In this document: piece after piece, positions 6,431 through 28,700 of the stretch
Layout of the letters: each line of letters starts with the position of its first letter
Numbering within the stretch: the stretch's first letter is position 1
Virus record (IMG/VR): IMGVR_UViG_3300030107_003389
Span: 1-51,808 of that record
Source of the DNA: a virus
Taxonomy: Duplodnaviria > Caudoviricetes
DNA length: 51,808 nucleotides
Strand: one strand, 5' to 3'
Notes under the pieces: model-generated
Told to the model about the DNA's origin: nothing
Databases searched by the model: none
The model's input: only the letters and a program-made list of their open reading frames with translations
Program-made: the position numbers and the translations under genes

Positions 6431-7170
6431 TTTCTATGTACTATATACTTAGGTTCTTCTTTACTCAACTGTATCTCTACCCATCCTTTAGTTTGTGGCT
6501 CTAAGATACCATATCGTGCGTATTCTGCATATCCTATGAATGAACCCCCTCGTACAAACCATTGTCTTTTAACTTCTTCATTATCTTTCATGATTTCAAA
6601 AGAATCTATTGGTTTAGCATATAGTTGATGATTATGACCTAAATAGTACATATCAGCTTCTGGAAAGATGTTTCTTAATCTAGTTAGTTCCATGTCTCCG
6701 TTTTTAGCACCACTCTTCCCATGACCACTTGCTAATACAAATCTTCCATTTTTATAGTTTATTACTGTATAGCCTGGAAAAGGAAAGTATGGTATTTCTA
6801 AATCATCACACATAACACGAATTATATCAATTCCTGCTAATCTTACGGAACGAAGAGTGTCATGGTTTCCACCTCTCATGAAAATACATTTATTCAAAAT
6901 AGGTCTTACCATAGTAACAAATTGTTCGTACTGTTCGTTATTGTCAAAAGCTTGGTCGCCTTCAGGAATATGATAATTAGGTGGTATAAACTCTAACATA
7001 TCACCATTTCCGAACCAAAGAGCATTTGGGTCTTTCTTTATCTTATCTATTGCTTTCAAAAAAAGCATTCGGTCAAAAACCTTGCTTCCTACATGAACAT
7101 CTGTAAGGCAATGTATATTAACCTTAGGCTTGTTTACCGTCTTTTCTAGTATTTTACCTGGAACTATCAT
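6427..7170 (-). CDS. Calcineurin-like metallophosphoesterase
   Basis: DVHVG, GD, GNHD, HG and GHNH motifs. Confidence 0.9.
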   Translation of the reverse strand: MIVPGKILEKTVNKPKVNIHCLTDVHVGSKVFDRMLFLKAIDKIKKDPNALWFGNGDMLEFIPPNYHIPEGDQAFDNNEQYEQFVTMVRPILNKCIFMRGGNHDTLRSVRLAGIDIIRVMCDDLEIPYFPFPGYTVINYKNGRFVLASGHGKSGAKNGDMELTRLRNIFPEADMYYLGHNHQLYAKPIDSFEIMKDNEEVKRQWFVRGGSFIGYAEYARYGILEPQTKGWVEIQLSKEEPKYIVHRK

Positions 7171-7501
7171 AGTCTTTCTCCATATCTTCTAATAATTCTA
7201 CATTATCACTTGAATACAAATGATAACTAGTAAGAATTATACTATAATTTATTAAATCTAATAGGGTGTCTTCAAGTCTTTCGTCTTTTACAGCCATTTT
7301 TCCGTTTCTCCTCAACAAATTAGCAATTCTAGCCAATTTATCCGATATTCTTACCAATATTCCTGTTGGAACATCGCATATTTTAAGCGATTCTACCATT
7401 TCAAAGTTAGAAAAAGGGTCTTTTTGCTGTGCATAGTCAATATTCTTGTTATCACACAACGATTTTGCCTTTTTCACGATAGCATCATAGTTTGGAATCA
7501 T
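7154..7501 (-). CDS. Nucleotide-modification-associated domain 1 protein (NMAD1/DUF1599, all-alpha NTP-pyrophosphatase-like)
   Basis: KNIDY...SNF, RISDKLAR, DERLEDTLLDLINY motifs; GGAGG RBS before ATG 7501. Confidence 0.8.
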   Translation of the reverse strand: MIPNYDAIVKKAKSLCDNKNIDYAQQKDPFSNFEMVESLKICDVPTGILVRISDKLARIANLLRRNGKMAVKDERLEDTLLDLINYSIILTSYHLYSSDNVELLEDMEKDYDSSR

Positions 7502-7829
7502 ATTCTCCTCCTGATTTTTCCCATATATAGTTGCCAACCCCTAGTTGATATAAGGAGTTGGCAATTACCTGGACTTGTGTTTCTGATATATTCAAACTTG
7601 TTCCATGAGTTATAGCATGTAGCACCTCATGGCACAATACTTCTAAGATTTTAGAATGTTTCATGTCTCTTTCTAAGATAATGTCACATTTCCTCATACT
7701 GACAGCACCCAAGATTTCACAATCATCTGTGCCATATTCTGCTTTACCACCTTCAATAAAGCGAATAGTGTAGATATGCCCGTTAATTTCTAAACTAAGA
7801 GGCTTTTTCGGAATTTTCAGTATTTTCAT
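7485..7829 (-). CDS. Small zincin-like metallopeptidase
   Basis: HEVLH (HExxH) with downstream E (SETQV). Confidence 0.75.
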   Translation of the reverse strand: MKILKIPKKPLSLEINGHIYTIRFIEGGKAEYGTDDCEILGAVSMRKCDIILERDMKHSKILEVLCHEVLHAITHGTSLNISETQVQVIANSLYQLGVGNYIWEKSGGEYDSKL

Positions 7830-8019
7830 CGGCTTCCTTATTAATTTCTTCTTGTAAGTGTTTATTAAATTTTTCTGTATCTTTTTTCATTTCTATATAT
7901 TTATTAATAACAGACTCAAGTAACATTAATCTTTGGTTTAACTCAATAATCATTCTCTTATTGAGGGCGATATTATATACTAATTCCTTATTAGTGGGTT
8001 TTTTCTTTCTTTGTCGCAT
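7795..8019 (-). CDS. Hypothetical coiled-coil protein; first gene of the late arm, probably leaderless
   Basis: 74-aa ORF; ATG 5 nt downstream of a putative -10 box; no SD. Confidence 0.7.
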   Translation of the reverse strand: MRQRKKKPTNKELVYNIALNKRMIIELNQRLMLLESVINKYIEMKKDTEKFNKHLQEEINKEADENTENSEKAS

Positions 8020-8024
8020 AATAA

Positions 8025-8054
8025 AGGTTAAAACTGTTATTTCATGAAAGTCAA
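8025..8054 (-). promoter_or_regulatory. Putative sigma70-type promoter for the late (-) arm
   Basis: TTGACT-N18-TAACCT with T-rich upstream tract. Confidence 0.6.
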
Positions 8055-8100
8055 GAAAAAAATAAAAAAAAATTTTCTAGGGTTTGTTTTACGATAATAC

Positions 8101-8129
8101 TTGACTTATGCTTTAAATCTTCTTAAATT
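8101..8129 (+). promoter_or_regulatory. Putative sigma70-type promoter, divergent (+)
   Basis: TTGACT-N17-TAAATT. Confidence 0.6.
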
Positions 8130-8193
8130 CAGTTAGAAACTAACTGCTAATAGTCTAGTTAGTCTAACTAGTTAGTTAGTATAGTTAGCGAAA
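8130..8193. repeat. TAGTTAG/CTAACTA palindrome cluster (operator- or iteron-like)
   Basis: CAGTTAG-AAA-CTAACTG (8130-8146) and CTAGTTAG-T-CTAACTAG (8155-8171), plus further GTTAG units; the 15-mer recurs at 18957-18971. Confidence 0.75.
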
Positions 8194-8196
8194 TCC

Positions 8197-8360
8197 CTAA
8201 GTCCTTATATATCACGACTTAGACACAATACCCATTCTAAAAAAATAGCCCAAGTATGTGTGCTCTTCTTTTTTTTGCATGATACCCCCCCCCTGACTTT
8301 GTTATAGGATTGAACTTTTTAGTTGAAATTCGCCCTAAGTGTTGATATTGTTGAACTTAG
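8197..8360. repeat. Two split palindromes CTAAGT-N14-ACTTAG flanking a T-run and a C9 run
   Basis: Copies at 8197-8222 and 8335-8360 with identical 14-nt spacing. Confidence 0.75.
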
Positions 8361-8497
8361 AGCCGAGCCTTAAAAGTGAGCCGATTAGTGCTCAGACTAT
8401 ATTTTTTGAGCACTTTTCGAGCCCTCCAAATCATCCAAATCATCAAATTAGCCCTCCTGAGCACCCTTACTTTACCGACGATAAAGCCAAATAATCC

Positions 8498-8526
8498 TTG
8501 CTTGTTGCTCCTCGTATATATAAGTT
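8498..8526 (+). promoter_or_regulatory. Possible early promoter
   Basis: TTGCTT-N17-TAAGTT upstream of the first early gene. Confidence 0.4.
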
Positions 8527-8690
8527 TGTTTAGTTGGAGGTAAACCCTCGACACCTCCGACGACACAATAAGAGTTCGAGGAAAGAATAGAGAGAAAAAC
8601 ATGAATAAGACACTTTTAGCGTCAGAAATACCGACGGAGAGCACAAGTTCTCCGATAGAGAAACTAAACATCCTAAGAGGAGGATATAAC

Positions 8691-9062
8691 ATGAAAAACG
8701 AGTTAATTAACGAAAATACGACGAAACTTATCGACGAGTGCCAATTTGGTTGTGCATTGGAGATAAGCGAGAACATCGAGGAGAAAGCGAGAATATTACA
8801 GGCTATGCTCGTCGAGAACTTAGACGGAACAATTAATGCCTTAGTCGAGGCTTATGAGAAGCCATGGGATTATAGCCGAGAGGTTGTGGTTGATTTAGTA
8901 TCGACAATCAAGGGCATTAACACTTTCGACTTTGTCGTCGAGCAAGGGGATTTTTGCGATATTTTCCGAGCAAATGAGACCTTGAACGAGGTTTTTATCG
9001 TCGATGCTACTGAGGATAAATATGAGTTTATCGACGAGAACTTCGGGGAGGACTTTGTTTAA
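8691..9062 (+). CDS. Acidic early hypothetical protein
   Basis: GGAGGA RBS before ATG 8691; D/E-rich. Confidence 0.75.
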   Translation: MKNELINENTTKLIDECQFGCALEISENIEEKARILQAMLVENLDGTINALVEAYEKPWDYSREVVVDLVSTIKGINTFDFVVEQGDFCDIFRANETLNEVFIVDATEDKYEFIDENFGEDFV

Positions 9063-9312
9063 CCCGACGGCTTAACCGAGACAACGAGGCTTTGAGCACT
9101 TTGTATCGACAAGTGCCGAGAATTCGAGGGAAACCTCCGTCGAATACCCGACGGCTATTTCTCAGGGCTCAAATTCTGAGCACCGAGATAAGTGCACCCT
9201 TTATTGAGGGGAAAGTGAGGACTTACTGAGGAAAATTCGGCAAAAGCACGGCAAACTCCGTTCGCACGGGGAAGTGGGAACTTCCCTCCCTTTAAAAAGG
9301 ACTACGGAGCAA
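9063..9312 (+). ncRNA. Candidate structured non-coding island 1 (tandem short hairpins)
   Basis: GAGG-GAAA-CCTC, CCGTCG..CGACGG, GCAC(T)TTGT..ACAAGTGC, CTCCGT-TCGC-ACGGGG, GGGAAGT..ACTTCCC; ACCCGACGGCT occurs twice. Confidence 0.45.
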
Positions 9313-9351
9313 AATTAACGAAAATTCAAATAAACTATGAGGAGTTTAAAC

Positions 9352-9771
9352 ATGAAAAACAACATTAACATCGAATTAATTAACGATAGCATTAAAACTG
9401 AGACAAATTGGCTCTTACTCGACGAGTTAGAGTTATATGAGTATGATAGTGAAATCCAAGAGAGTTTCCAATATCTTTCAGATATTAGAAATGGAGAGGA
9501 TTTTAAAGACTTGCCAAGAGATTTAAGGCTTGAAATAAAACAAATTCTCTTACAAGTAGAGATAGAGAGAGATAGTTTGGACTTCTTTCTTGATGATGCC
9601 GATAGTTTCATAAGGGAGAACTTTTGGGCTCTTGTATCAAACTTTGTTATCATCGGTAAAAAAGAGCAATTTATCAAACTTTGTTTAGATAAATTGAGCA
9701 TTTGCTTAGAGGACAAAGAGGATTTAATGTTTTTACAAACATTAAACCATTTATCTGAGGGCTCAAAATAG
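9352..9771 (+). CDS. Acidic early hypothetical protein
   Basis: GAGGAG RBS before ATG 9352; D/E-rich, helical. Confidence 0.75.
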   Translation: MKNNINIELINDSIKTETNWLLLDELELYEYDSEIQESFQYLSDIRNGEDFKDLPRDLRLEIKQILLQVEIERDSLDFFLDDADSFIRENFWALVSNFVIIGKKEQFIKLCLDKLSICLEDKEDLMFLQTLNHLSEGSK

Positions 9772-9822
9772 TTGCTACCATCAAAGATGGGAGCAAAAGT
9801 TAAAAGGGCTCAGTAGTAGTGC

Positions 9823-9874
9823 TCATGTTTAATCATATCTCTTTACTTTGTTTTTAGAGATATGATAAACATGA
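9823..9874. other. Long intergenic hairpin
   Basis: TCATGTTT-A-ATCATATCTCT ... AGAGATATGAT-AAACATGA. Confidence 0.7.
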
Positions 9875-9922
9875 AAACACTTAAAGCCGAGCAAAATCAA
9901 CCACTTATGGAGGACAAATAGC

Positions 9923-10114
9923 ATGAGTAAAAAGTATTCTTACAATAGTTTCGCCGACTTTGGAAAGGCATATAAACGAGGAGAATTGGGTAAAGACTTC
10001 TCGAAAACTCTTGCCGACAACAAGAGAAAACAAGAAAGTAAAAAGATTGTTAATAAGATGTCGGCTATTAGCCAAAATACTAACGACATTTTAAAATTCA
10101 TGGGGAGGAGATAA
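9923..10114 (+). CDS. Small basic hypothetical protein
   Basis: GGAGGA RBS; 63 aa. Confidence 0.75.
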   Translation: MSKKYSYNSFADFGKAYKRGELGKDFSKTLADNKRKQESKKIVNKMSAISQNTNDILKFMGRR

Positions 10115-10115
10115 T

Positions 10116-10280
10116 ATGCCGAGAGAGATATTAGAATATATATTGGGCTTTGAAAACAAAGTTTTCAACGAGAAAACTCGAATTGAGGACTTTGAGGGTT
10201 TCTCCAAATGGATTTGGAGAACATATTACATTGACGATTTGGGAAATAAACAAACTTTGTTTGTTTGGGAGGAGAAATAA
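10116..10280 (+). CDS. Small hypothetical protein (54 aa, MPREILEY...WEEK; not in ORF track)
   Basis: GGAGGAG RBS; TAATG coupling to next gene. Confidence 0.7.
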   Translation: MPREILEYILGFENKVFNEKTRIEDFEGFSKWIWRTYYIDDLGNKQTLFVWEEK

Positions 10281-10729
10281 TGAGATTTATTAATAAAATG
10301 ATAGCCGAAGTAGTATCGAGGGAGCAAATAAAACCTATTGACATGGATAAGCACGATTTATCTATAAGTGATTTAGGTGCAGGGAGAATACCTTTATTTG
10401 CCGAGGATAATATGGGAAATTTCAACCTTTCAGACGAGGTTTTCGGTTATCAAATGGTGCGAAACATATTGACGATATGTAATCGTTATGATATGGACAT
10501 CATGAGAACAAAAATAATTGTTGAGCCCGTAGGTATAGTATGGAGTGAGGACATGCAACGAGAAAATAACGAGACTTTCGGTTGGGCTTATCAGGAGAGA
10601 GACGAAAACGGAGATATAGAATATCTCTACGATACTCGACTTTTTACTTACGAAGTAAGATATGCTCATGAGGAGGCACTTGTTCCAAGTGCTATAATTA
10701 TTAAGCAACGAGTAATAACCTATTGCTAA
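10280..10729 (+). CDS. Hypothetical protein
   Basis: GGAGGAG RBS; TAATG-coupled start. Confidence 0.75.
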   Translation: MRFINKMIAEVVSREQIKPIDMDKHDLSISDLGAGRIPLFAEDNMGNFNLSDEVFGYQMVRNILTICNRYDMDIMRTKIIVEPVGIVWSEDMQRENNETFGWAYQERDENGDIEYLYDTRLFTYEVRYAHEEALVPSAIIIKQRVITYC

Positions 10730-10750
10730 CATTAACAACGAGGAGTTAAA

Positions 10751-11107
10751 ATGAAAAATACACAAGAAATCGCAGACAATTTTCAAAGAAAATTTGAGAA
10801 AGAGGACTACCTCTCTTTCATGTTGGATGAGTTCATCCAATATTTAAAGGAGGCAAAAGAGGACGGACAAGACATCGAGGATGTCTTGAATAAATGGAGG
10901 TTAGATACCGACGAATATCTACCTTTCAATAGTTATTCGTTCCGAAAACTATGTTGGATTTTCATAAATGCTTTTGCATGGTGTCTAAAAGACACGGATT
11001 TCTCCGACATAGAGAATTACGAGGATATGGAGATGTATGTAAAGATTATTCAGGGAGATTGGCATTGGCAAGACGACATGGATAATATCAACGAGGAGGA
11101 TAAATAA
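10751..11107 (+). CDS. Acidic protein; candidate Ocr-like DNA mimic
   Basis: 118 aa with 30 D/E (hand count), aromatic-rich, acidic tail; early position. Confidence 0.5.
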   Translation: MKNTQEIADNFQRKFEKEDYLSFMLDEFIQYLKEAKEDGQDIEDVLNKWRLDTDEYLPFNSYSFRKLCWIFINAFAWCLKDTDFSDIENYEDMEMYVKIIQGDWHWQDDMDNINEEDK

Positions 11108-11108
11108 C

Positions 11109-11459
11109 ATGAAGTTAATTACGAAAGAAATTCAAAAGAAATTAGACGGAAATCTCAAACTCGACGAGTTTGAAAGAAAACCTTATCTTAAATTATTTAA
11201 TCCGTGTGGACAAGCAACATGGCTTATTTCCGAGCATAATAAGGAAACTGGTTTAATGTTCGGCTTGTGTGATTTAGGACAAGGATTTGTCGAGTATGGA
11301 TATGTTAGCATCTATGAAATAGAGGCTATTGAACTTCCGTTTGGGTTATCTATCGAGAGAGATAAGTTTTTTAAACCAAAAACTACATTAAAAGGTTATT
11401 TAGACGAAATAAATGAGAAAGCCGAGGACGGCTATCCAACTATTATGTCGGTAGCATAA
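11109..11459 (+). CDS. DUF2958 family protein
   Basis: KLFNPCGQATWLISE...MFGLCDLGQG..EYGYVSIYEIE...IERDKFF signature. Confidence 0.85.
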   Translation: MKLITKEIQKKLDGNLKLDEFERKPYLKLFNPCGQATWLISEHNKETGLMFGLCDLGQGFVEYGYVSIYEIEAIELPFGLSIERDKFFKPKTTLKGYLDEINEKAEDGYPTIMSVA

Positions 11460-11505
11460 TGATATACTTAGAACTATTTGTATTTGCACTATCTATGATA
11501 GTGAT

Positions 11506-11835
11506 ATGGGAAATAAACAAAGCAATATGGAGAGATTAAACATGATACAAGCACAAGAAGTAAAAGAAAACGATATAATTGTTCAGGCTTTGCCTGATGA
11601 GGTTATCGAGAAAGAAATAATCGAAGTTTCATCCATTTATGGAGATATAATGAGCAAATTTCAACTCATAGAAGTAATTGTTCATCAACTAAGAGAACAA
11701 CACGAGCAAGAATTGAGGGCTCAGGAGTTTATCGACATGGAACTTTATATTCCTAACGAGGATGATGAATACGAAAAAATACAAAGTATGGGATACTTTG
11801 ACGGCGATGATTTTATCATCGGAGAGGAGGAGTAA
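11506..11835 (+). CDS. Acidic hypothetical protein
   Basis: E/D-rich ORF; start uncertain (11506/11527/11542). Confidence 0.7.
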   Translation: MGNKQSNMERLNMIQAQEVKENDIIVQALPDEVIEKEIIEVSSIYGDIMSKFQLIEVIVHQLREQHEQELRAQEFIDMELYIPNEDDEYEKIQSMGYFDGDDFIIGEEE

Positions 11836-11836
11836 T

Positions 11837-11995
11837 ATGAGCACTTGGAATATATGTTGGCTATTCATAGGCTTACAATTCGCAGGGCTATTCCTTGGAG
11901 TAGCGACGGATATGGTGCACGAGTTTAACACGATTGCATATCCTACATTAGTGCTCATGTTTTTATTAATAATGCTCACTAAGTATTTAGTATGA
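11837..11995 (+). CDS. Small two-TM membrane protein
   Basis: GAGGAG RBS; two hydrophobic stretches. Confidence 0.65.
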   Translation: MSTWNICWLFIGLQFAGLFLGVATDMVHEFNTIAYPTLVLMFLLIMLTKYLV

Positions 11996-12050
11996 GCATT
12001 ATTAAAAAACATGAACAACAAAATTTCAACCAATTTGGAGGACAAATAGC

Positions 12051-13457
12051 ATGATTGTCGATAATAAATCAACTGAATTACAAAATCACGGAGGAACAGG
12101 CATGGAGAATAATATTCCGTCGGCTAATGAGATGTCGAACATGAAAGTAAAGTCGGAACTTCGCCCTATGATGAGAAAACTCGTCGATGTTTTACAAAAA
12201 GAGGGCTTAGCAAGTCGTAAAGATTGCTCAGATTACCGATACCAAATCAAAATGGGTAGCAAAAGTCAAATTATGGACTTAGCCAACAAGTTAAGTGAAC
12301 TATATGGAGATGCATTGGAAAATTTGCAACCTAATCAACCTAATCAACCTACACAACCTACACAAAAAGACGGCTCAGGCATAAAATTTAAGCCTCAGGG
12401 AAATGAAAAATCCGACGGAGATGATACTTCTTATGGAGGTAGAATAAATAATGTCGAGCAAAAAGTCGATGATTTAGCCGAAATGATAGCCAATGGGATG
12501 ATGCAAATTAAACCTAACGAGGTTAAAGATAATAACGGAGACGAATTAAAACACTTCCAATTCGATACCATAAAACTTATGTTGGAGGAGAATAAACAAG
12601 TGCTCTTAGTCGGAGATGCAGGTAGTGGTAAGACATACTTGGGTAAGCAATTAGCATCGGCATTGAATTGTGAGAATTTCCACTCGTTATCGCTTACCTC
12701 AGGGATGAGTGAGAGCCACATCACAGGTAGGATGAACATCGAGGGAACTTTCCTCACTCCTGAATTTATGCATATCGTCGAAAATGGAGGTTTAATTCTA
12801 CTCGACGAATTTGATAACGGAGATACTGATGTATTAGTCGGCTTAAATAGTTTATTAGCCAACGGCTTTATATCATGTCCTTTGAGAACAGGCAACGAAA
12901 TGGCAATTAGACACGAGGATTGTTATATTGTATGTAGTGCTAATACATGGGGTAATGCCAACTCAGGAAATATGTATGTGAGAAAACAACTCGACGGAGC
13001 AACTCTCGATAGATTTGTGTGCTCAAAGGTAGAAGTCGGAAATGATAGACGAATTACACATCGAATAATGGGCTTATCAGGAGATAATTGCGAAGTTCAG
13101 GAATATCCTGAATTAGAAATGCTATCGACATTAGAGAGACAAAATGCAGATTTACATGTCGGTAAATTAATGGAGATTTTCGATACCATAAAACAATATA
13201 CACTCAAACCTAACATGCAAATCAGACAAATGTGCTCGAATAGAGCCTATGAACAAGGTGCAAAATTAGTTAGACGAGGTATAACTCCTAACCAAGTGCT
13301 CAAACTATACCTACAAAATTGGACTGACGATGAATTAAAACGAATAGGTGTAGAGAGAGATAGAGCAAACGAGTTTTTCGGAGTAATATCGTATAATATT
13401 AATGAAAAAGAGTTCTTTAACGGAGTTAAAGACACACAAGGAGAGAACAATGAGTAG
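12051..13457 (+). CDS. MoxR/CbbQ-like AAA+ ATPase
   Basis: Walker A GDAGSGKT, Walker B ILLDEFD, sensor SANT, Arg finger DGATLDRF; QPN/QPT linker repeat. Confidence 0.9.
   Translation: MIVDNKSTELQNHGGTGMENNIPSANEMSNMKVKSELRPMMRKLVDVLQKEGLASRKDCSDYRYQIKMGSKSQIMDLANKLSELYGDALENLQPNQPNQPTQPTQKDGSGIKFKPQGNEKSDGDDTSYGGRINNVEQKVDDLAEMIANGMMQIKPNEVKDNNGDELKHFQFDTIKLMLEENKQVLLVGDAGSGKTYLGKQLASALNCENFHSLSLTSGMSESHITGRMNIEGTFLTPEFMHIVENGGLILLDEFDNGDTDVLVGLNSLLANGFISCPLRTGNEMAIRHEDCYIVCSANTWGNANSGNMYVRKQLDGATLDRFVCSKVEVGNDRRITHRIMGLSGDNCEVQEYPELEMLSTLERQNADLHVGKLMEIFDTIKQYTLKPNMQIRQMCSNRAYEQGAKLVRRGITPNQVLKLYLQNWTDDELKRIGVERDRANEFFGVISYNINEKEFFNGVKDTQGENNE
12327..12365 (+). repeat. 9-bp tandem repeat CAACCTA(AT/CA) x4 (QPNQPNQPTQPTQ linker)
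   Basis: Read directly from sequence. Confidence 0.85.
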
Positions 13458-14496: not shown

Positions 14497-14502
14497 AAGA
14501 AC

Positions 14503-14931: not shown

Positions 14932-14956
14932 AAAACCTTTTAGGAGGACAAATAAC

Positions 14957-19270: not shown

Positions 19271-19288
19271 TTTAATTAAGGAGAATAT

Positions 19289-21573: not shown

Positions 21574-21575
21574 TA

Positions 21576-21679: not shown

Positions 21680-21696
21680 TAATTAAGGAAAGTTTT

Positions 21697-21900
21697 ATGA
21701 AAGATAAAAAATTAGTTTACGATAAGAATAGAAATCCAAAATATATACCAACATCTCCTGTTGTCCACGACAAAAAATGGAGAAAGGAAACATCTGAGCA
21801 CTTCCGAAAAAAACATGGTGCTTGGTGGATTTTTGCAGGGATTAGAGGCTCGGCAAAAAGAACTTGGATTGACCAATATAGAAAGAAAGCAAGAGGTTAA
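21697..21900 (+). CDS. Basic hypothetical protein
   Basis: AAGGA RBS. Confidence 0.65.
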   Translation: MKDKKLVYDKNRNPKYIPTSPVVHDKKWRKETSEHFRKKHGAWWIFAGIRGSAKRTWIDQYRKKARG

Positions 21901-21901
21901 A

Positions 21902-22117
21902 ATGAAAAAATGGATGAAAAAATCTGCACAGGATTTAGAGAAATTCCTTGAAGATAAATTAGAAAACTATGTAGGAGAAATGTTTTGGCTACAAAATGTA
22001 GGTAAAATATATCTTACGGAAAATGGCGATATTGACGAAATAACTATGCAAGGAGAATTTAACGAAGAAATTGATATAGTTAAAGAGTGGATAGATGATT
22101 GGAAAAAAGATGAGTAA
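21902..22117 (+). CDS. Acidic hypothetical protein
   Basis: GAGGT RBS before ATG 21902. Confidence 0.65.
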   Translation: MKKWMKKSAQDLEKFLEDKLENYVGEMFWLQNVGKIYLTENGDIDEITMQGEFNEEIDIVKEWIDDWKKDE

Positions 22118-22313
22118 AAAAGGAAAAGAATATTCAGATAAAGAAGTAAATTCAATGATATTATATCTTAGAATTAATCGTGTAGCCGAAATGCAATACA
22201 TTGACGATAGTTCAGATAAGTTTCATGATTTTATTAGCCATAAAAAACTAACAAGAGAAGAAGTTATAGACTTAGCACTTGATTATAAATGGCATAAAAG
22301 TTGGAATACATAA
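22110..22313 (+). CDS. Hypothetical protein
   Basis: Coupled ORF. Confidence 0.6.
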   Translation: MSKKGKEYSDKEVNSMILYLRINRVAEMQYIDDSSDKFHDFISHKKLTREEVIDLALDYKWHKSWNT

Positions 22314-22314
22314 A

Positions 22315-22482
22315 ATGAAACCAAAAGAAGATAAATCTTGGGATATAAGGGTTGAGGGAAAACAAAATAAAAACAATATTATTTTTCAAGACAAAGCCTA
22401 TTATAAATTATATTTAGAGTTAAAAAAAGAAAATGATAAAATTAAAGCAATAAAAGGAGACGAAAATGGTTGCAAAAAATAA
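22315..22482 (+). CDS. Hypothetical protein
   Basis: Tightly packed ORF. Confidence 0.55.
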   Translation: MKPKEDKSWDIRVEGKQNKNNIIFQDKAYYKLYLELKKENDKIKAIKGDENGCKK

Positions 22483-22780
22483 AGCAAGAGGAACATATTA
22501 CGAAAGAAAATGTGTAGAATTTGCTAAGAGTTTAGGTTTAGATGCAGAAAGAACTTGGGGGTCAGACGGAAGAAGTAGAGGACTTCCTCAAGAAGTAGAT
22601 ATGGTGCTCGAAGAAGACATTTACATACAATGCAAGAAAAGAAAAAAACTTGCAAAACATTTAAAACCAACTAAAAATATACATGTTCAATTTGTTGGAG
22701 AAGATTATGGAGAAAATTATGCTATCATGTCTCAGGAATATTACTTAACTTTGATAGCAATGTTAAAGGAGGTTAAATAA
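22466..22780 (+). CDS. Hjc-like Holliday junction resolvase
   Basis: KARGTYYER, AERTWGS, VD...IQCK PD-(D/E)XK-type motif. Confidence 0.8.
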   Translation: MVAKNKARGTYYERKCVEFAKSLGLDAERTWGSDGRSRGLPQEVDMVLEEDIYIQCKKRKKLAKHLKPTKNIHVQFVGEDYGENYAIMSQEYYLTLIAMLKEVK

Positions 22781-22878
22781 TGGCTAAAAGAAAATACACA
22801 AGAAAGAAATTAAGTTTTTGGGATAAAGTTGCCAAAGGCTTAGAAAAATTTCTATCTACGGCTATGCCTAAAAAGTAA
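22780..22878 (+). CDS. 32-aa basic amphipathic microprotein (MAKRKYTRKKLSFWDKVAKGLEKFL...)
   Basis: AAGGAGG RBS; TAATG coupling. Confidence 0.6.
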   Translation: MAKRKYTRKKLSFWDKVAKGLEKFLSTAMPKK

Positions 22879-22885
22879 TAGCAAG

Positions 22886-22914
22886 TTGAAATCATGTTAA
22901 ATTATTATTATATT
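22886..22914 (+). promoter_or_regulatory. Putative sigma70 promoter
   Basis: TTGAAA-N17-TATATT. Confidence 0.55.
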
Positions 22915-22937
22915 ACAAACCTATAAAGGAGGATAAA

Positions 22938-23150
22938 ATGTCAAAAAAAGACAAGGAAATGCAAGAAAATGCTGAAAAAAACTTGACAAAATATTCTGAT
23001 GAAGTTCAGAAAGTTCAAGAAAGAAAAAATCATTTAATCCAAGAGTTAGATGCTTTAAATAAAACCGAACAAAGACTTGTTGGTGCTATGGTAGGGCTTC
23101 AGGAATTACTTGGAGAAGAAAGCGAAGAAAACAAAAAAGAGGAAAACTAA
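22938..23150 (+). CDS. Coiled-coil protein
   Basis: AAGGAGG RBS. Confidence 0.75.
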   Translation: MSKKDKEMQENAEKNLTKYSDEVQKVQERKNHLIQELDALNKTEQRLVGAMVGLQELLGEESEENKKEEN

Positions 23151-23329
23151 TGAGTTCAAACGAAGAAAAGTTAAAAGACTATGAAAGTGAAATAAAGGAT
23201 ATTAACTCTATGTTAGATGACCTTACAATGAGAAAAGCAAAATTATTGTTTGCTATTAAACAATTACAAAACGATAATTTAAGCACTCAACTTAGGCTTA
23301 ATCCTAAAAATATAGGGGGAATATCATGA
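23150..23329 (+). CDS. Coiled-coil protein (59 aa; not in track)
   Basis: GAGGA RBS; TAATG and ATGA coupling. Confidence 0.65.
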   Translation: MSSNEEKLKDYESEIKDINSMLDDLTMRKAKLLFAIKQLQNDNLSTQLRLNPKNIGGIS

Positions 23330-23529
23330 CACAAAATGATATGATATTGGTTGCACTTAAAAACGGAGAAAAAGTCACTCCTTTAAGTGCACTCCAAAAC
23401 TTTGGTTGTTTTAGATTAAGTGCTCGAATTTGGGATTTAAGAAATGAAGGGCATCCTATATCTAAAAAAACAATATCAACTCCTCAGGGAAAGTCTGTTG
23501 CAGAATATTATTATGACAAACAAGATTAA
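23326..23529 (+). CDS. Winged helix-turn-helix protein
   Basis: ITPL-like VTPLSALQNFGCFRLSARIWDLRNEGHPI...VAEY phage wHTH signature. Confidence 0.85.
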   Translation: MTQNDMILVALKNGEKVTPLSALQNFGCFRLSARIWDLRNEGHPISKKTISTPQGKSVAEYYYDKQD

Positions 23530-23704
23530 TAATATTAAAATAGAAAAAGGAACACAATCTGAGAAAGATGTTGATGACTTTAAAGAGTGGATATTAACTA
23601 AGGCAAATCAGTTAGGCTTTTCAGTAGAAACAAAAGAAATAAACCTTGATAAAGATTTAGAGGCTCGTAGTGGAGTTGCTCTATGTGATACATGTGATGA
23701 TTAA
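23513..23704 (+). CDS. Hypothetical protein
   Basis: C-terminal CDTCDD. Confidence 0.6.
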   Translation: MTNKINNIKIEKGTQSEKDVDDFKEWILTKANQLGFSVETKEINLDKDLEARSGVALCDTCDD

Positions 23705-24027
23705 TGAAAATCTTTATCAAAAAAATCATTACTAAATGGTTGTATTTATACGAAAGTATTTATTCTAAAGAAACTCTTGAATATTACTTTGGCAAAAATA
23801 CAGACTGGTTTGATGACGAGAACATAGAAAGCGAAAAAAGAAAAAAAAACGAAGTTTCTTATAGCAGGAAATCTAAGTTCCAACCTTATAGATGTCCACA
23901 ATGCAAAAAATCATGGAGATATTATTCCATGCCTAAGGGGAAAGTTCCTCTTAGGGAATTTATCGGAAAAGGAATACCAATGGAGGAAAAAAAATGCCCA
24001 AAAAAATTAAAGTGCTCAAAAATTTGA
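23704..24027 (+). CDS. Zn-binding hypothetical protein
   Basis: CPQC...CPKKLKC; TAATG coupling. Confidence 0.65.
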   Translation: MKIFIKKIITKWLYLYESIYSKETLEYYFGKNTDWFDDENIESEKRKKNEVSYSRKSKFQPYRCPQCKKSWRYYSMPKGKVPLREFIGKGIPMEEKKCPKKLKCSKI

Positions 24028-24073
24028 ACCTGTGCTCAACTTCTGCTGCCGAGCACTCACCTAAGGACTGGCA

Positions 24074-24421
24074 ATGAGATGCCCTGCTTGTGGTTGGTCA
24101 AACACCTTAAAAAATTACCCTAGAAAAATAAAACAATTAGAAAACAAACTTAGCCATGAAGCCCTTGAACATTTAAGACGGCTTTTCTTAACAACATTAG
24201 ATGATTTAACATCATATACACTTTTAAAATCATGCGAAGAACTTGAAGATAAAGTCATTGAACATTGTGTAAATATATGGGAAAGAAGAAATTTAGAAAA
24301 AAAAGGCTTTGATGTATATTATTTCATTGGTATATTGAGAAATGAAAACAAGAAGTTTGAGAACAAACTGATTGTTGAAAAAAACAAATTAGAACAATTA
24401 CCACCTACTATTAATGAATAA
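24074..24421 (+). CDS. Hypothetical protein; possible helicase loader/initiator
   Basis: N-terminal CPAC; overlaps DnaB start. Confidence 0.5.
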   Translation: MRCPACGWSNTLKNYPRKIKQLENKLSHEALEHLRRLFLTTLDDLTSYTLLKSCEELEDKVIEHCVNIWERRNLEKKGFDVYYFIGILRNENKKFENKLIVEKNKLEQLPPTINE

Positions 24422-25772
24422 TAAAAATCTTGAAGTATCAAAAATGTATAGTGGCATGTCAGAACGAGAAGTTTTGGGATGCATGCTACTCGATGATAGC
24501 ACTATTAATGAAGTAATAAAGTATATTCCTACTAAACAAGTATTTTATCACAAAGACCACCAAAACATTTGGTCTGCTATTTATAGTCTGCACAAGCAAA
24601 ATAAGAAAATCGATTTAAGTGTTGTTGCAAACTATTTAGGAGAAAAAGGATTAAAGATTACATATTATTTAAGTGGAATTACTGAACAAATAGTATCAAA
24701 AGGTAATTTAAATACACATGCAAAAATTATTTATGATTTATATTTAAGAAGAGAACTTTGGAATAAGGTTGCGAAGTTTCAACAAAGATTAAAAGACGAA
24801 AGTTCTTATAAAGAAGTAGCAACTGATGTTAATATGTTGGGGAGAATTTCCGACAAATTCGCCGATATGCTCGATAATGGCAATAAGTCAATGGATTGCA
24901 TCACAGAAGAAATGGAAGAGGCTATATTTGCTCAAAAAAATCTATTACAAACTGGATTAAGAAAAGTAGATAAGTCAATCGTTGGTATGACAAAGGGCGA
25001 AATCTCCATTATTGCAGGTAGACCTGGAAACGGAAAGAGCACCTTAGCCTTAAATATGGTTAAAAATATGATTTTAGACGGCAAAAAAGTAATGTTAGTT
25101 AGTAGAGAAATGCCTAATGTTGAGATTATTAAGAAGTTAGTTGCTATGCATACTAATGTTCGTAATAAGGAAATGAGAGGAAATGCTCACAAACACAAAG
25201 AAGAAATCAAAAAAGGTTTAGAGTTCATAAAAAAACATTACACTTCGCTTCATTTATTTGATAATTTAAGAAGTCTCGATGATAGTATAAACGAGGCAAA
25301 AAAAATAAGACCCGATGTAATTATTGATGACCATGTTGGTTTTATTGAATTTCCACATTACGATAATAGAGATACTCGACATCGTATTGCCGAAATTACA
25401 AGAAGATATAAATGGTTAGCAAAAGAAATTGATTGTTCTGTAATCTTAGTCTCTCAACTAAACAGAAACATAGAACATCGAGTTGATAAGATACCAAGAC
25501 TTAGCGACCTTGCTGAGTCTGGTAATCTTGAGCAAGATGCCGAAATTGTAGTCTTTGCCTATTATCCCTATGTATACGAATATGATAATGCCGAGCACGG
25601 AGAACACGGATTAAAAATTATCATAGCAAAAAATAGATACGGAACAACATGTAAATTTGATATGGGTTATCACGGAGATAGTGCTACAATATTGGATAAT
25701 CCTGCCGAGGCTATTGCAAAATCTGAGGGTAGAGAACTTACTACTGAAGAAGTAGTAGAAAGTCTATTTTAA
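24414..25772 (+). CDS. dnaB: Replicative DNA helicase
   Basis: N-terminal SEREVLG/FY..HQNIW; IAGRPGNGKS, SREM, SQLNR, LSDLAESGNLEQDA, AKNRYG. Confidence 0.95.
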   Translation: MNNKNLEVSKMYSGMSEREVLGCMLLDDSTINEVIKYIPTKQVFYHKDHQNIWSAIYSLHKQNKKIDLSVVANYLGEKGLKITYYLSGITEQIVSKGNLNTHAKIIYDLYLRRELWNKVAKFQQRLKDESSYKEVATDVNMLGRISDKFADMLDNGNKSMDCITEEMEEAIFAQKNLLQTGLRKVDKSIVGMTKGEISIIAGRPGNGKSTLALNMVKNMILDGKKVMLVSREMPNVEIIKKLVAMHTNVRNKEMRGNAHKHKEEIKKGLEFIKKHYTSLHLFDNLRSLDDSINEAKKIRPDVIIDDHVGFIEFPHYDNRDTRHRIAEITRRYKWLAKEIDCSVILVSQLNRNIEHRVDKIPRLSDLAESGNLEQDAEIVVFAYYPYVYEYDNAEHGEHGLKIIIAKNRYGTTCKFDMGYHGDSATILDNPAEAIAKSEGRELTTEEVVESLF

Positions 25773-28700
25773 TTTTCTATAGTGCTCATTTTTTGTTTGA
25801 GCAATATGTCTAAATAATTCTTGAGAGTTTATGCGATAAACACCTGTAATATCTTTAAGTTCTGCTTTCATTTCATCATTTAATCTGCTTACAAAATCTG
25901 CATGGTCTGATATTCTTCTACCTTGTGTTGATTGCATTGATAGTTGTATAGGTTTTTGGTCTTTTATGTATGCTAATGCCATTTTATATCCGTATTCAAA
26001 CGATACTTTTTGACTTGTTCTTCCTGGATTAGCCATTTCGTGTTGATGTGCTAAGAAATATACGGTAGTCCAAAAACTTTGAGCCTTTTCTTCTATAGGT
26101 TTTTGAGAATAAAGAGTTGCTTGTAGTTGTTTATACATTAAACTTTTCGTCACATCGTCGTTAAATTGTCCAACACTTTCAATTTTTCTTATGTCTTTTC
26201 TATATTCTGATTGCAACATCCTCATATTTTTGAAATGTCTTAAATCTTTTTTAAGCCAATTAGCCTCTATACCTTTAATAATGTCATTAGACAAAGGAAT
26301 TGCTTCAAAAATTGCTTTTGCTCCTGCTTTTAACAATGCTACATCTTGACCATTAGCATCCTTATCTAATAACATTGCTCCTCCTTTAAACATTTGAGTA
26401 AATGCACCTATCATCCTTATAGGCAGTTGAATAATTGCAGGAGTAAATGATTGAAAAAAACCACCTGATGCTTGGTCTTGGTCCATTATACCTGAGCCCA
26501 ATGCATACATTTCACCTTTTACTGCGTAATCGTTCATCCTTTCAAGAGGAATAACGATGTTATTTCTATATTCATCCCAACTTATTTCTCCTTTTGAAAC
26601 ATCTATTGTAGATTTTGCAAAATCTTTTAATTTCATTTCAGGTTTAAATGCCTTAGGATTAGAGTTAAATGCATCAAAATATACATTTTGTAATACATAT
26701 CCTGCTCCCATACTTCCTGCTATATATCTTAACATAGGAGCAACTTCTCCATTATCTATCATAGGTCTAAACGCATTTTTATAAACATTTTCTTGAACAC
26801 GATAAGCAATACGATAAAACAATGTAAAAGGTTTCATCGCTTTAGTGCTCATAAAACGAGGCATAAACACAGGGTCTGCTAAACCTTGCGTGCTCGCATG
26901 TGCTGTAAAATATATTTTATCTAACGCTTTTTGACTAAATGCTCCTGTTTCAACTGCGTCTGCAATTTGTTTATCAGACAATTCTAACGCCTCTCCGAGC
27001 ACCCTTCTGGCTGTAGACTTGTCCATACCAGAAAACATTTTTATTGGCTGGTTTCTGAGCACCCTAAGAGCATCAGTCGCTACAACATCTCCTGTAGTAG
27101 TTGCTACTACCCTATTTAATTCTTCTGCTTTTTGCATCCAAGTAGTAAGCAATTTTCTAAATCCTGTTTTTGGAACTAATGTAGTTTCTAATATAGCATC
27201 AGAAGCACCTATAGCACCACTTGCTCTTGCTTTTTGCCATGCTTGATTTCTAAATGATTTACTCATAATCATATTATACCATGTCGAAATAACAGGTTTC
27301 ATGCCATGTGTAGTTAATAATTGAACATTTCCTAAAAGAATATTTTTTAGAGCAGAACGAGGACTACTTAAACCCAAAGAAGCAGTCCAAGATACTAAAT
27401 TTCTTGAAATAGGTCCAGTTAATTCATCATATCCAGGTCCATGAAGAATTAATTCTAAATCTTTTTCCATTTGTTCTTTAATATATTTTTGAGCACCTGG
27501 ACTATTTACTTGTCTTTGTATACTTCTAAACCTTTTTGTAAAATTTGACGAAAAGTCTTTCGAGCCTGGTTTAAATACACCTTCGTGACCAAAATATTTA
27601 GTAGTTGCAGTAATATTTGATGCACGACTTGCATATCTGTCCATACTTTTAGCATAATTAGGCTCATATATATCTATTATTTTAGCAATTCTAGTTCCAT
27701 CAATGCTATCTCCTACTTGTTGAGTCATGTTTTTTACACCTTGAATTATTTTTCCATTACTATCAAGAAACAATTTTGGAGGAATAGCATCACTTAAACG
27801 GCTATATTGTGCTCCAAACATACCATGTTTTTGACTTCCAGTAAGAACAGTTTCAAAAACTCCTTCTGCAAGTTCATATCTTTTTTCATATGGTAATTGA
27901 GCATATTCTCCATTTCTGATAAATCTTGCATCATGAGCTAGTATATGATTAATCATAGTTTCATGAGCATCTTTATCTTTCATAAAAAATTCTGCAGCTT
28001 CATCAGTAGTTGTTAAACTTACAAAATTAGGAGTTTTTGTTAAGTCTCTATATCTATAACCTTTTCCATCCCAATATTTTTCTTTTACTCCAGCTTTTTT
28101 CATCATTGCAAACATATCATCGGTATATTGTTTATGAAGAGCTACCATTTTAAGCATAGCATCATGCTCTTGAGCAGTTAAATTTGGCTGTAATTGCTTC
28201 ATAAACCTTCCTCTTGCACTTTTAGTTTTTCCTTCAATAAAATATGTAAGATTCTCGTCTAATAATTTTGTAGAAGCCTTAGAAAGACCAGAAGTAATTT
28301 TTTTCATCTGTTCTCTCATTACTGAATATCCACCTTTTAATTTTTCTCTAAAAGCAACCATATCTCCTAAGTCTTTTCCAAGAACTACTAATTCATCACT
28401 TCCTAAATCTCTACCTAAATTCATAAATTTAGTGTTAATTGGAAGAACTGAATTAATCCATTTTCTTATACCTCCTAAAAGAGACTTTTCTTGTCCAAAT
28501 AAAGTAGATAATGTAGATTCATTTACTCTAACAGCATATGTTTTGTCTGATTTTAACAATGAATAATATTTGGCAAGTTCATCACTATTCATTTTTTTCA
28601 TAGAATCTTTACCAAATAAAGCTTGTTTTAAAGCTGCATGGTGCTCAACACCTTTTTTAGTTGCTATAGGAGATTTTAACCCCATTGTTCTTTCTAATTG

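Follow-up and report, generated by a model that had tools for sequence, protein, structure and literature searches.

Recognition words purged from the early gene arm of a marine phage genome and kept in its late arm

Gene content and layout

The window is the whole 51.8-kb phage contig. Its two ends join in frame through a wrap-around ORF, and the contig closes on itself. The source phage is marine and uncultured. Features are listed by coordinates, strand and description.

1394..6430, minus: late packaging genes, the unpurged comparison (portal 1394-3394, TerL 3954-5549, TerS-like 5669-6430)
6427-7170, minus: metallophosphoesterase/exonuclease-like gene (phrog_7339 match), its 5' part in the left overhang
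6953..7953, minus: left overhang, free of AGCT and GTAC, with small genes at 7795-7953, 7485-7829 and 7154-7537
7954..8375, no strand: divergent intergenic control region, conserved in an alignment with 6 relatives
8101-8129 and 8323-8351, in the control region: promoter-like TTGACT and TTGAAA, respectively
8147-8188, in the control region: array of short TAGT/CTAG repeats
about 8286-8294, in the control region: C-run
8169..25772, plus: motif-purged core of the early/replication arm, 39 called ORFs, from small acidic proteins through DnaB
8691..9062, plus: first early ORF with a strong Shine-Dalgarno, 123 aa
9337..11835, plus: run of small, mostly acidic ORFs (144, 63, 54, 154, 118, 116 and 109 aa)
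11109-11459, plus: DUF2958 protein, within the acidic run
12051-13457, plus: AAA_5 (MoxR/CobS-like) ATPase, 468 aa, the largest early ORF
13402-14496, plus: DUF7192 partner of the ATPase
19289-20158, plus: exonuclease of a recombination pair
20184-20864, plus: Sak-like single-strand annealing protein of the same pair
24414..25772, plus: DnaB-like replicative helicase, the last early gene, its stop overlapping that of the convergent 1699-aa gene
25764..27935, minus: right overhang, the 3' 2.2 kb (C-terminal ~720 codons) of the 1699-aa late gene
27936..51808, minus: remaining late arm, including the N-terminal part of the 1699-aa gene, crossing the contig join and continuing to 605
31810-32607, minus: 265-aa protein, weakly T7 gp14-like (profile match)
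35785-42477, minus: 2230-aa tail fibre with Peptidase_S74 chaperone
45005-45376, minus: holin

In the early arm, small acidic ORFs precede the recombination and replication genes. The first early ORF has a longer reading (8601-9062, 153 aa) with a net charge of about -20 and a pI of 4.1. Its product has 8 homologues only. AlphaFold models it as a helical bundle (pLDDT 70), for which no PDB fold match, no Ocr-like fold and no Pfam or PHROG match were found. We regard it as a putative host-takeover or anti-defence protein. Among the 20 scanned of the 39 called early ORFs, no anti-restriction or methyltransferase family was found in Pfam or PHROG.

In the control region, the conserved blocks stop at ~8330 and the sequences of the 6 aligned relatives then diverge. 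CTAG is kept at 8077, 8155 and 8168 and purged to the right. The promoter-like matches are not above shuffles. We propose the region as a candidate location of early promoters and perhaps of the genome terminus.

As for a phage RNA polymerase, none was found: the large late ORFs (1699, 2230, 842 and 641 aa) carry no polymerase family, and early ORFs reach at most 468 aa. The single-subunit RNA polymerase gene that marks T7-like podoviruses (Autographiviridae) was thus not found. The 265-aa protein matches PF24072 (T7_gp14) weakly: E is 6e-4, the 20 bits fall below Pfam's cut-off of 27, and the match is seen in 1 of 7 family members. Neither this protein nor the 1699-aa protein has a PDB sequence match.

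Word depletion in the early arm

The early arm (~8.2-25.8 kb) is without, or nearly without, AGCT, GTAC, CTAG, GANTC, ACNGT, GTNAC and CAGC, and also ACGC, CCATC, CCTTC, GGTGA, CATTC and others. About 15 words, and at least that number, stand at 0-12 % of expectation there and at 50-115 % in the late arm. Recognition words are therefore missing from one contiguous region and present at the expected density elsewhere in the same genome. With 11 core motifs pooled, 8169-25772 holds 0-3 sites per 500 bp and the late arm 6-34.

Most of the gaps given in the preliminary description were recovered at its coordinates. No AGCT occurs across 6953-27935 (the last is at 6949, the next at 27936); the first kb has 9 sites and the whole window 166. 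GANTC, described as absent from about 7.9 to 25.5 kb, has no site from 7914 to 25514, and GAAGA/TCTTC has the single site at 17407 between 8265 and 20050. GTAC is missing from 6929-30794, CTAG from 8169-24119, CAGC from 7704-27994 and GCTG from 7427-20399. Two other words had been misplaced in the list: GGNCC is not specific to the block (12 sites in total, none from 1 to 26479), and GATGG has just 4 plus-strand sites anywhere, the block pattern belonging to its complement CCATC.

We scored both arms separately against 200 codon shuffles that preserve amino acids and codons. Observed and expected counts are as follows.

Word: early arm; late arm
AGCT: 0 vs 45.5 (sd 5.4); 166 vs 184
GTAC: 0 vs 32; 58 vs 101
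CTAG: 1 vs 30.6; 49 vs 97
GANTC: 1 vs 40.8; 71 vs 84
ACNGT: 0 vs 17.5; 68 vs 75
GTNAC: 1 vs 22.7; 64 vs 79
CAGC: 4 vs 34.5; 229 vs 242
CCATC: 2 vs 22; 79 vs 80

The earlier account had staked its claim on such a null, under which the depletion survives. The codon-pair choices it described also hold, Asp-Gly being written with GAC in 17/17 early pairs and with GAT in 60/73 late pairs. These results support a selective, not a compositional, depletion.

Another group of words, most of which had been overlooked, is at zero across all 51.8 kb: GATC, ACGT, CCGG, GGCC, GCGC, CGCG and CCGC. In the late arm, codon shuffling gives an expectation of 88 for GATC and 44 for ACGT. The late arm can thus be purged when needed, and AGCT is kept there through relaxed selection and not through constraint.

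Composition of the early arm

From ~8.3 kb rightwards, GC3 falls through 0.37, 0.30, 0.23, 0.17 and 0.13, a gradient shared by 12 of the 14 relatives' loci examined. CpG odds are 0.85 in the arm vs 0.32 outside. TCGA, missed earlier, is reversed, with 74 sites in the arm and 11 outside, a reversal of TCGA and CpG that the entry model of the preliminary description does not predict. Resampling constrained to avoid 22 purged words gave a GC3 of 0.16 and 6-10 CpG per kb, vs 0.37 and 36 observed. Removal of those 22 words does not account for the arm's high GC3, CpG and TCGA.

The gradient in GC3, CpG and TCGA, which is conserved in relatives, raises the question of a constraint unrelated to restriction, such as a demand for GC- and CpG-rich DNA that the host polymerase can transcribe at once, for evasion of AT-binding silencers or for rapid translation, with the missing words partly side effects. 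Leading regions of conjugative plasmids offer a parallel, being GC-rich and codon-adapted and, in the part of PMC13478746 drawn on here, not consistently motif-depleted. However, a shift in composition cannot bring AGCT to 0/45 and leave TCGA, CATG and TGCA no rarer than the arm's own codon usage predicts. Lineages with the same gradient also lack different sets of words, and many of the missing words are what we take to be classical restriction sites, recognised by enzymes in REBASE. Such a constraint probably explains the gradient and not the purge, for which we consider it quite improbable.

Related genomes and strains

Repeating the analysis on related genomes, as had been proposed, gave a one-sided result. 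We tested 152 motif classes per genome in 15 related genomes. By the threshold used, 24 motifs were purged from the early arm alone, spread over 9 genomes, and 0 from the late arm alone in any of the 15. The other 6 genomes had no early-only motif that reached the threshold.

The purge is lineage-specific, and the purged sets differ. The early-arm AGCT purge is limited to this phage and a relative with 95 % TerL. Across the family, early-only purging affects ACNGT in 6 genomes, and CAGC and GTAC in 3 each. Unlike this phage, 4 relatives are purged of CATG throughout the genome. In 9 relatives, dnaB (68-73 % aa identity) carries 3-11 AGCT, 2-5 CTAG and 3-7 GANTC, against 0, 0 and 1 here. The relatives' orthologous exonuclease (69-78 % aa identity), AAA and other early genes also carry the sites. 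It follows that the words were lost in situ, from genes passed down vertically.

The purge is also maintained among strains by purifying selection, as the variants support. The 33 listed natural variants of other strains at 8.3-12.4 kb create 0 forbidden words, vs 8.6 expected (sd 2.9) when the same substitutions are placed at random; 0 of 2000 such trials reach 0.

A mosaic history would see the arm as an import from a phage lineage whose hosts carried different R-M systems, its composition being a leftover. The arm does differ in dinucleotide signature and GC3, and several right-hand boundaries cluster at 27.6-27.9 kb. Early arms are hypervariable among relatives and strains, with gene replacements; in strains from other samples, 9349-9756 and 10282-10728 are replaced by unrelated DNA. 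Against an import stand the one-sided motif counts, the avoidance of purged words by strain variants, and the vertically inherited dnaB and exonuclease, which are purged here and not in the relatives. The left flank is collinear with many relatives and evenly 74-77 % identical across the 6.95-kb AGCT boundary, and their alignment gives no break in similarity at this left block boundary. At the right end, the early genes are orthologous to those of relatives, and the boundary falls inside a syntenic, fast-evolving gene. We judge an import very improbable. Recombination may spread purged arms; it does not explain the one-sidedness.

Boundaries and polarity of the purge

The purge is polar. It starts at ~8.2-8.3 kb and weakens rightwards along the plus-strand arm: stray sites of purged words lie mostly at 20-25.5 kb, and GAAGA/TCTTC and GCTG are missing only to ~20 kb and then return. 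The preliminary description held that the purge follows position, and that boundaries coinciding with gene or strand switches would speak against this. The polarity bears it out in part, and several boundaries do adjoin the strand switch: those of ACNGT, GTNAC, GAAGA and ACAG lie within 400 bp of it, whereas AGCT, GTAC, CAGC, CCATC, GANTC and CTAG overrun it by 1.1-5 kb. Overall, the purge overruns the arm by 0.4-1.4 kb on the left and 0.3-5 kb on the right.

On the left, AGCT, GTAC and CAGC overrun the divergent region by 0.4-1.4 kb. In the left overhang the AGCT gap has P = 0.0015; CTAG, GANTC and CAGC are not purged there, and GC3 is 0.26 vs 0.13 in late genes. The stretches homologous to 6.9-8.4 kb contain 2-9 AGCT sites in 12 relatives, and one, at 8032, in strain L001 (99.3 % identical).

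On the right, the AGCT-free zone was said to run about 2 kb into an opposite-strand late gene, and it covers 2.2 kb of the 1699-aa gene (P ~3e-5 at the late-arm AGCT density). This gene is syntenic with the relatives' gene convergent on dnaB and 25-28 % identical to it. In this overhang, AGCT and CAGC are at zero (P = 3e-5 and 5e-4), GTAC has no site up to 30794 (2e-4), and CCATC, GANTC and CTAG are nearly at zero (0.012, 0.018 and 0.055). GC3 is 0.17 vs 0.13 in the N-terminal part of the gene.

Proposed explanation

This pattern suggests that the early arm meets host defences first. We favour, as the fairly probable reading, a polar avoidance of restriction linked to the order of entry, the principle of T5, T7 and Murciavirus on a much larger scale. 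Most likely, the DNA would enter the cell in the plus direction from an end near 8.2-8.3 kb. The plus-strand early arm would then meet host restriction enzymes before the phage takes control, and a cut there would be lethal, so that selection would remove the words of R-M systems circulating in the host population. Two groups of words would result, about 9 removed genome-wide and about 15 (at least 15) more from the early arm only. The late arm would enter later, shielded from the second group by an event that follows early gene expression, and would keep those words. The order of entry, a fixed genome end and the shielding function are what we infer here.

Selection per site would fall with distance from the leading end, which would account for the graded, motif-specific boundaries and for the motif-free sequence that reaches into the 3' end of the 1699-aa gene. 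Such a smooth drop fits the boundaries as well as the discrete time stamps, one per enzyme, proposed earlier. Ordered entry needs an extra assumption for the leftward overrun of AGCT, GTAC and CAGC: a terminal repeat, or an end that lies further left. That no recognised anti-restriction gene or methyltransferase was found among the 20 scanned early ORFs, and no DNA-pulling phage RNA polymerase, counts against it. So do the missing fold match of the first acidic protein, the weakness of the T7 gp14 likeness, the 6 genomes with no early-only motif and the high GC3, CpG and TCGA of the arm. The closing of the contig on itself and the scattered breaks of relatives' contigs fit terminal repeats and also headful packaging, under which an effect of entry order should not exist.

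A race in time could give a similar picture with the whole genome entering at once. Cuts in or near early genes would stop the takeover, anti-nuclease and recombination functions, a late-arm cut would be tolerable or repairable once the Sak and exonuclease encoded in the arm are made, and selection would decay on both sides of the early genes. The overrun on both sides is expected if end-resection from a nearby cut matters, and the arm does encode the recombination pair and the helicase. The assembled contigs give no evidence for fixed ends; those of relatives, from public runs, break at scattered places. However, a race does not predict the strong left-to-right gradient, in which protection is lowest for the replication and recombination genes at the right end. 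Moreover, wherever a double-strand break falls, exonucleases of the RecBCD type normally gain access to the entire molecule. We consider this race unlikely and retain ordered entry as the preferred reading.

Comparison with known systems

The first-step-transfer region of T5 is without EcoRI sites (Davison and Brunel, cited in PMC12455610 and PMC8594841). According to the parts of these papers drawn on here, a site gained in the leading segment makes the phage sensitive, and the pre-early genes located there protect the rest. The likeness, as far as these parts describe T5, is a defined segment free of sites found elsewhere in the genome. T5 concerns one enzyme, a ~10-kb terminal repeat and a proven two-step transfer; the present arm lacks at least 15 words over 17-21 kb, its boundaries are graded, and an ordered transfer is what our reading proposes.

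In Murciavirus (Autographiviridae), facing the Type I system Mme2I, restriction depends solely on motifs of the first-injected region, and relatives differ from one another most in the early region (PMC12455610, in the part used). The early region also varies between relatives in the present family. That case, as far as the source text goes, concerns a single 4+3 bipartite Type I motif, was shown experimentally and belongs to a T7-like phage with its own RNA polymerase. In contrast, we describe many 4-5-bp Type II-like words in a phage in which no RNA polymerase was found, on purely computational evidence.

T7 combines gene 0.3 (Ocr) with a slow, transcription-coupled genome entry, later DNA entering after defences are disarmed (summarised in PMC12455610). 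Early genes at the leading end and host-type promoters, as proposed for the present phage, resemble this arrangement; an Ocr-like fold was not found. The late genes of the present phage oppose the proposed entry direction, so that their transcription could not draw the DNA into the cell. Avoidance of Type II sites in T7 is genome-wide and not regional, as stated in the part of PMC8594841 used here. Genome-wide avoidance has its likeness here in GATC, ACGT and the other words that are absent throughout. Rusinov et al. (2018, cited in PMC8594841) reportedly described avoidance of restriction sites across whole phage genomes. What mainly marks the present genome is regional and polar, and whole-genome counts would dilute or miss it.

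Lastly, the leading region of conjugative plasmids is GC-richer, with a distinct codon usage, read as adaptation to recipient defences (PMC13478746, in the part used). The phage arm shares these two traits and may likewise enter first. In that text, short palindromes are not consistently depleted from plasmid leading regions, whereas the phage arm is depleted to zero. The principle is the one known for the first-entering DNA of T5 and Murciavirus, and it would act here on a larger scale, with about 15 words over a third of the genome.

Genome layout and relatedness

The window is the entire assembly, a single 51,808-bp contig. It is a closed (circular or permuted) assembly without duplicated ends, since an ORF leaving position 1 on the - strand resumes in frame from 51,808. 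The features referred to below are the following.

1-605 and 50953-51808 (-): 486-aa ORF crossing the contig join in frame
7954-8375: 420-bp intergenic region from which the two arms diverge
8077-8294: non-coding elements, namely a TAGT/CTAG short-repeat array (8147-8188), TTGAC-type boxes and a run of 8-9 C
about 8.4-25.8 kb (+): 39 called ORFs of the early arm
8691-9062 (+): ORF of the first acidic early protein
9337-9771, 10751-11107, 11506-11835, 14957-15229 and 16022-16270 (+): further small acidic early ORFs
9900-9925, 11086-11111, 12028-12053 and 14934-14959: repeats of a 26-nt translation-start cassette with a strong GGAGGA Shine-Dalgarno
25,764-25,772: overlapping stop codons of dnaB (+) and a 1699-aa late gene (-), where the arms converge

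The early arm (+ strand, early and replication genes, about 8.2-25.8 kb) runs from many small acidic proteins through an AAA_5 ATPase with its DUF7192 partner and an exonuclease/Sak-type annealing pair to a DnaB-type helicase. The remaining, - strand genes form the late arm, with portal, large terminase, a weak small-terminase match, a phosphoesterase/exonuclease-like gene, holin, virion proteins and a 2230-aa fibre with a Peptidase_S74 chaperone domain. The 1699-aa late protein matched no known family; a locus search for its relatives was empty, and local tblastn then recovered homologues. PDB sequence searches with the 265-, 842- and 1699-aa proteins were empty or spurious, the T7 gp14 likeness of one late protein is weak, and literature mentions of DUF2958 give no functional information. 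No phage RNA or DNA polymerase was found among the window's ORFs, and the tRNA scan of the window returned none.

Because both stop codons overlap, there is no space for a terminator at the convergent junction, and early transcription past dnaB would run antisense into the 1699-aa late gene. Strong GGAGG ribosome-binding sites lie upstream of early genes, and the repeated start cassette speaks against a host in which Shine-Dalgarno sites are not used. In the intergenic region, three CTAG sites, the short-repeat array and the C-run are kept in all relatives compared; over 8077-8294 the relatives are 73-89% identical, with conservation ending at about 8330. This region is a candidate for promoters, origin or terminus.

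Marine metagenomes commonly contain this family. No named phage was matched by megablast of the block; in TerL and DnaB, named phages are at best 25-30% identical, and tblastn gave no relative above 31%. As for the host, a search of genome contigs with TerL alone found no match, and a TerL profile search gave one 4.6-kb contig in a MAG and distant prophage-like matches, uninformative on the host.

An assembly chimera was rejected, with independent contigs spanning both the left junction (L001, L002, L003, L005 and L008, all metagenomic loci of relatives) and the right one (L083-L089). Higher summed depth at 6-8 kb in one public run (X1) does not count as evidence for a terminal repeat, as contigs of related strains had been summed.

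Words missing from the genome and from the early arm

The preliminary description reported a block of about 20 kb, between 6953 and 27935, purged of many restriction-type motifs. A site scan of the window reproduced all its coordinates with some corrections, and the loss proved larger than first reported. Synonymous codons were shuffled within each arm, with its proteins and its codon usage preserved (200 shuffles, plus 30 with 5-mers), and the depletion persists.

Six words (GATC, ACGT, CCGG, GGCC, GCGC and CGCG) have zero sites in the whole genome. In the early arm, 9 of the 12 palindromic 4-mers containing G or C are absent or nearly so (CTAG has one site), and only TCGA, CATG and TGCA are still present. 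Many of the purged words are what we take to be classical Type II or IIS recognition sites. Both arms are purged of GATC, ACGT, CCGC, CAGAG, CACTG and the rare GC-only palindromes, and GAAGA/TCTTC is missing solely from 8.3 to 20 kb.

Table. Observed/expected sites in each arm under the codon shuffle.
Word: early arm; late arm
AGCT: 0/45.5; 166/184
GTAC: 0/32; 58/101
CTAG: 1/31; 49/97
GANTC: 1/41; 71/84
ACNGT: 0/17.5; 68/75
GTNAC: 1/23; 64/79
CAGC: 4/34.5; 229/242
ACGC: 1/30; 42/50
CCATC: 2/22; 79/80
CCTTC: 2/19; 62/54
GGTGA: 2/20; 22/51
CATTC: 0/22; 34/42
GAACC: 1/12; 41/36
CCAGA: 2/11; 51/51
CTGTC: 0/8.5; 20/27.5

On the + strand of the late arm, asymmetric words are almost confined to one orientation (CCATC 75 versus GATGG 3, and TCTTC far above GAAGA). 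This bias looks like a consequence of AT-rich third positions, and it would also blunt enzymes needing inverted site pairs.

Boundaries and polarity

In the late arm, each 500 bp holds 6-34 sites of eleven pooled core words. Across 7.0-9.0 kb the counts are 9, 6, 4 and 1 per 500 bp; they stay at 0-3 up to 26.5 kb and rise again over 26.5-28 kb. Within the arm the purge weakens rightwards, with GAAGA and GCTG back at about 20 kb and most stray sites at 20-25.5 kb.

The boundaries had been described as staggered. On the right side, ACNGT, GTNAC, GAAGA and ACAG reappear less than 400 bp from the strand switch. The others overrun it: ACGC, GGTGA, CAGC and CCTTC reappear at 26.5-27.0 kb, CTAG, GANTC, CCATC and AGCT at 27.7-27.9 kb, and GTAC not until 30.8 kb. 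At late-arm density, the probabilities of such gaps are 3e-5 for AGCT, 5e-4 for CAGC and 2e-4 for GTAC. On the left side, the last of the forbidden words stand at 8168 (CTAG) and 8264 (TCTTC), with AGCT ending at 6949 (P = 0.0015) and GTAC at 6928 (P = 0.10). The homologous 6.9-8.4 kb of relatives holds 2-9 AGCT, and one AGCT (at 8032) is present in a strain of 99.3% identity; the left AGCT overhang is real but modest, evolving by single mutations. In relatives, motif-free zones extend past the convergent junction by 0.26-1.9 kb and past the divergent junction by 0.05-2.3 kb. Scans for terminators and promoters at the two boundaries gave matches not above shuffles, and no + strand terminator was found near 27.6-27.9 kb.

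Each boundary may mark the time at which one enzyme is neutralised. The same boundary data are explained by selection that declines smoothly with distance and scales with the frequency of each R-M system.

Composition along the early arm

Codon usage has the same polarity as the purge. GC3 is 0.37 at 8.3-14.5 kb, then 0.30 and 0.23; in the 1699-aa gene it is 0.17 for the C-terminal part and 0.13 for the N-terminal part, the remaining late genes also have 0.13, and the left flank 0.26. Closer relatives start at 0.41-0.58 beside the divergent region and reach about 0.24 at dnaB, their late genes having 0.12-0.19; the gradient is absent from two distant relatives examined. CpG falls from about 36-41 per kb at the arm start (41 at 8-9 kb) to 12-14 at 20-25 kb and 3-12 in late genes. 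CpG, TCGA and GC3 are all strongly enriched at the arm start and decay along 8300-27600, as they do in relatives' arms, some of which have CGCG.

That this enrichment is a by-product of the purge was rejected by constrained resampling: early proteins resampled with late-arm codon usage, with 22 purged words forbidden, gave GC3 of 0.16-0.17 and CpG of 6-10 per kb. It is therefore a feature separate from the purge. It may stem from long motifs beyond detection, from the needs of immediate transcription or translation, or from evasion of AT-binding silencers. The TCGA "reversal" is weakened as counter-evidence to the model, the late arm being only mildly low under its own codon usage (11 versus 25.5 expected). 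Leading regions of conjugative plasmids are GC-rich and codon-adapted, according to a 2026 study (PMC13478746).

Selection in place or mosaic history

One could suppose that the early arm lacks these words through a mosaic history and not through selection in place. Early arms are indeed hypervariable, and strains swap or lose single early genes. Five results stand against the pure form of this reading and point to position-linked selection.

First, GATC (0 versus 88 expected) and ACGT (0 versus 44 expected) are completely missing from the late arm, so it is free to lose words; since its AGCT count is normal, the pressure against AGCT is absent there.

Second, the purge is one-sided in related genomes, on which a repeat of the analysis had been proposed. 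We compared this genome with relatives' contigs long enough for both arms (14 of 89 loci) over 152 motif classes, calling a motif purged at an expectation of at least 8 with observed counts up to 15% of it, and normal from 50%. Purges confined to the early arm affect 24 motifs, distributed over 9 of the 15 genomes; as the genomes are related, the 24 do not stand for independent events. No genome has a motif purged from its late arm alone, though late segments are usually longer. At this threshold, 6 of the 15 have no early-only motif. The purged sets differ from lineage to lineage, so the purge is not one inherited accident.

Third, early genes of vertical descent have lost the words here. DnaB and the exonuclease share 68-73% and 69-78% amino-acid identity with relatives, in which the two genes hold 3-11 AGCT, 1-6 CTAG and 0-7 GANTC, against 0, 0 and 0-1 here.

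Fourth, the left flank up to about 8.3 kb is collinear with many relatives at 74-77% nucleotide identity, and the alignment is unbroken at the left AGCT boundary.

Fifth, strain variants avoid the words. Between the window and strains from other samples there are several hundred differing positions; of the 40 differences listed out of 567, 33 fall in 8.3-12.4 kb. Applied together, these 33 create none of 28 forbidden words, whereas at random positions the same substitutions yield 8.6 (sd 2.9), and not one of 2000 trials was free of such words. From these five results, a purely mosaic origin is unlikely.

Near-identical phages show turnover of genes in the early arm. In strains from other samples, unrelated DNA of 441 and 284 nt replaces two early ORFs (9349-9756 and 10282-10728), a 69-bp stretch (11459-11529) is missing, and so is the 66-aa ORF 20861-21061 (20856-21054).

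Every lineage has its own barcode of missing words. CATG is absent genome-wide in four relatives (L023/L088, L028/L085, L007 and L027); the window has more CATG than expected in the early arm (89 versus 69) and about the expected number in the late arm (69 versus 71.5). CCATC/GATGG is absent genome-wide in several relatives and here from the early arm only.

Proposed mechanism and precedents

The best-supported reading is that the early arm would be open to restriction while the phage has yet to act, and the late arm once it has. The simplest route to such unequal exposure would be ordered entry that starts at an end near 8.2-8.3 kb, a route with direct precedents. The preliminary description had proposed entry from about 8.3 kb, with early proteins neutralising R-M systems; the site loss that it described is confirmed, and its interpretation finds partial support. 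No known anti-restriction gene was found among the early ORFs scanned (20 of 39). Late genes are oriented against the proposed entry direction, so transcription cannot draw them in. PMC12455610 states that an entry-order effect should not exist in headful packagers, and on that basis the pattern predicts fixed virion ends for this family.

The first acidic early protein was examined as a possible Ocr- or ArdA-like DNA mimic, and its AlphaFold model (pLDDT 70) gave no Foldseek PDB match at E <= 0.001; it and the second acidic ORF are not paralogues.

A further reading, which we find rather doubtful, is that the family admits its genome in a fixed polar order and that a broad shield, raised soon after early expression, makes the remaining two thirds indifferent to at least 15 Type II-like specificities. 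The shield might block nucleases in general, coat the DNA or gate its entry, and would be encoded among the small acidic early proteins. If true, the per-motif boundaries and the GC3/CpG gradient would preserve, in sequence alone, the order of entry and the restriction repertoire of the host population, a record readable in any metagenomic phage genome without culturing.

If the reading holds, a comparison of motif purges between arms would reveal, from sequence alone, which end of an uncultured phage leads and with what polarity its DNA enters, and purged sets would read out the restriction repertoire of the marine host population, evidently R-M-rich. Lineage-specific barcodes could link phage strains to host strains. 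Furthermore, genome-wide and early-only words would separate the defences that the phage cannot switch off from those it can, a contrast pointing to an unrecognised broad anti-Type-II function among early genes. Whole-genome site-avoidance statistics would then also understate restriction pressure on phages.

In T7, slow genome entry is combined with Ocr. T5 has a first-transfer region without EcoRI sites, a precedent for site-free leading DNA as cited in PMC12455610. The same paper reports that in Murciavirus only the motif in the first-injected region counts, and that avoidance surveys had not considered the location of sites. In the literature searched on regional site avoidance, only PMC12455610 and the plasmid study PMC13478746 were directly relevant. 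Graded boundaries, lineage-specific word sets across an abundant uncultured family and an accompanying compositional gradient were not found there. The principle is already known; its scale here, with at least 15 early-only words and about 9 genome-wide ones over one third of the genome, was not found in that literature either.
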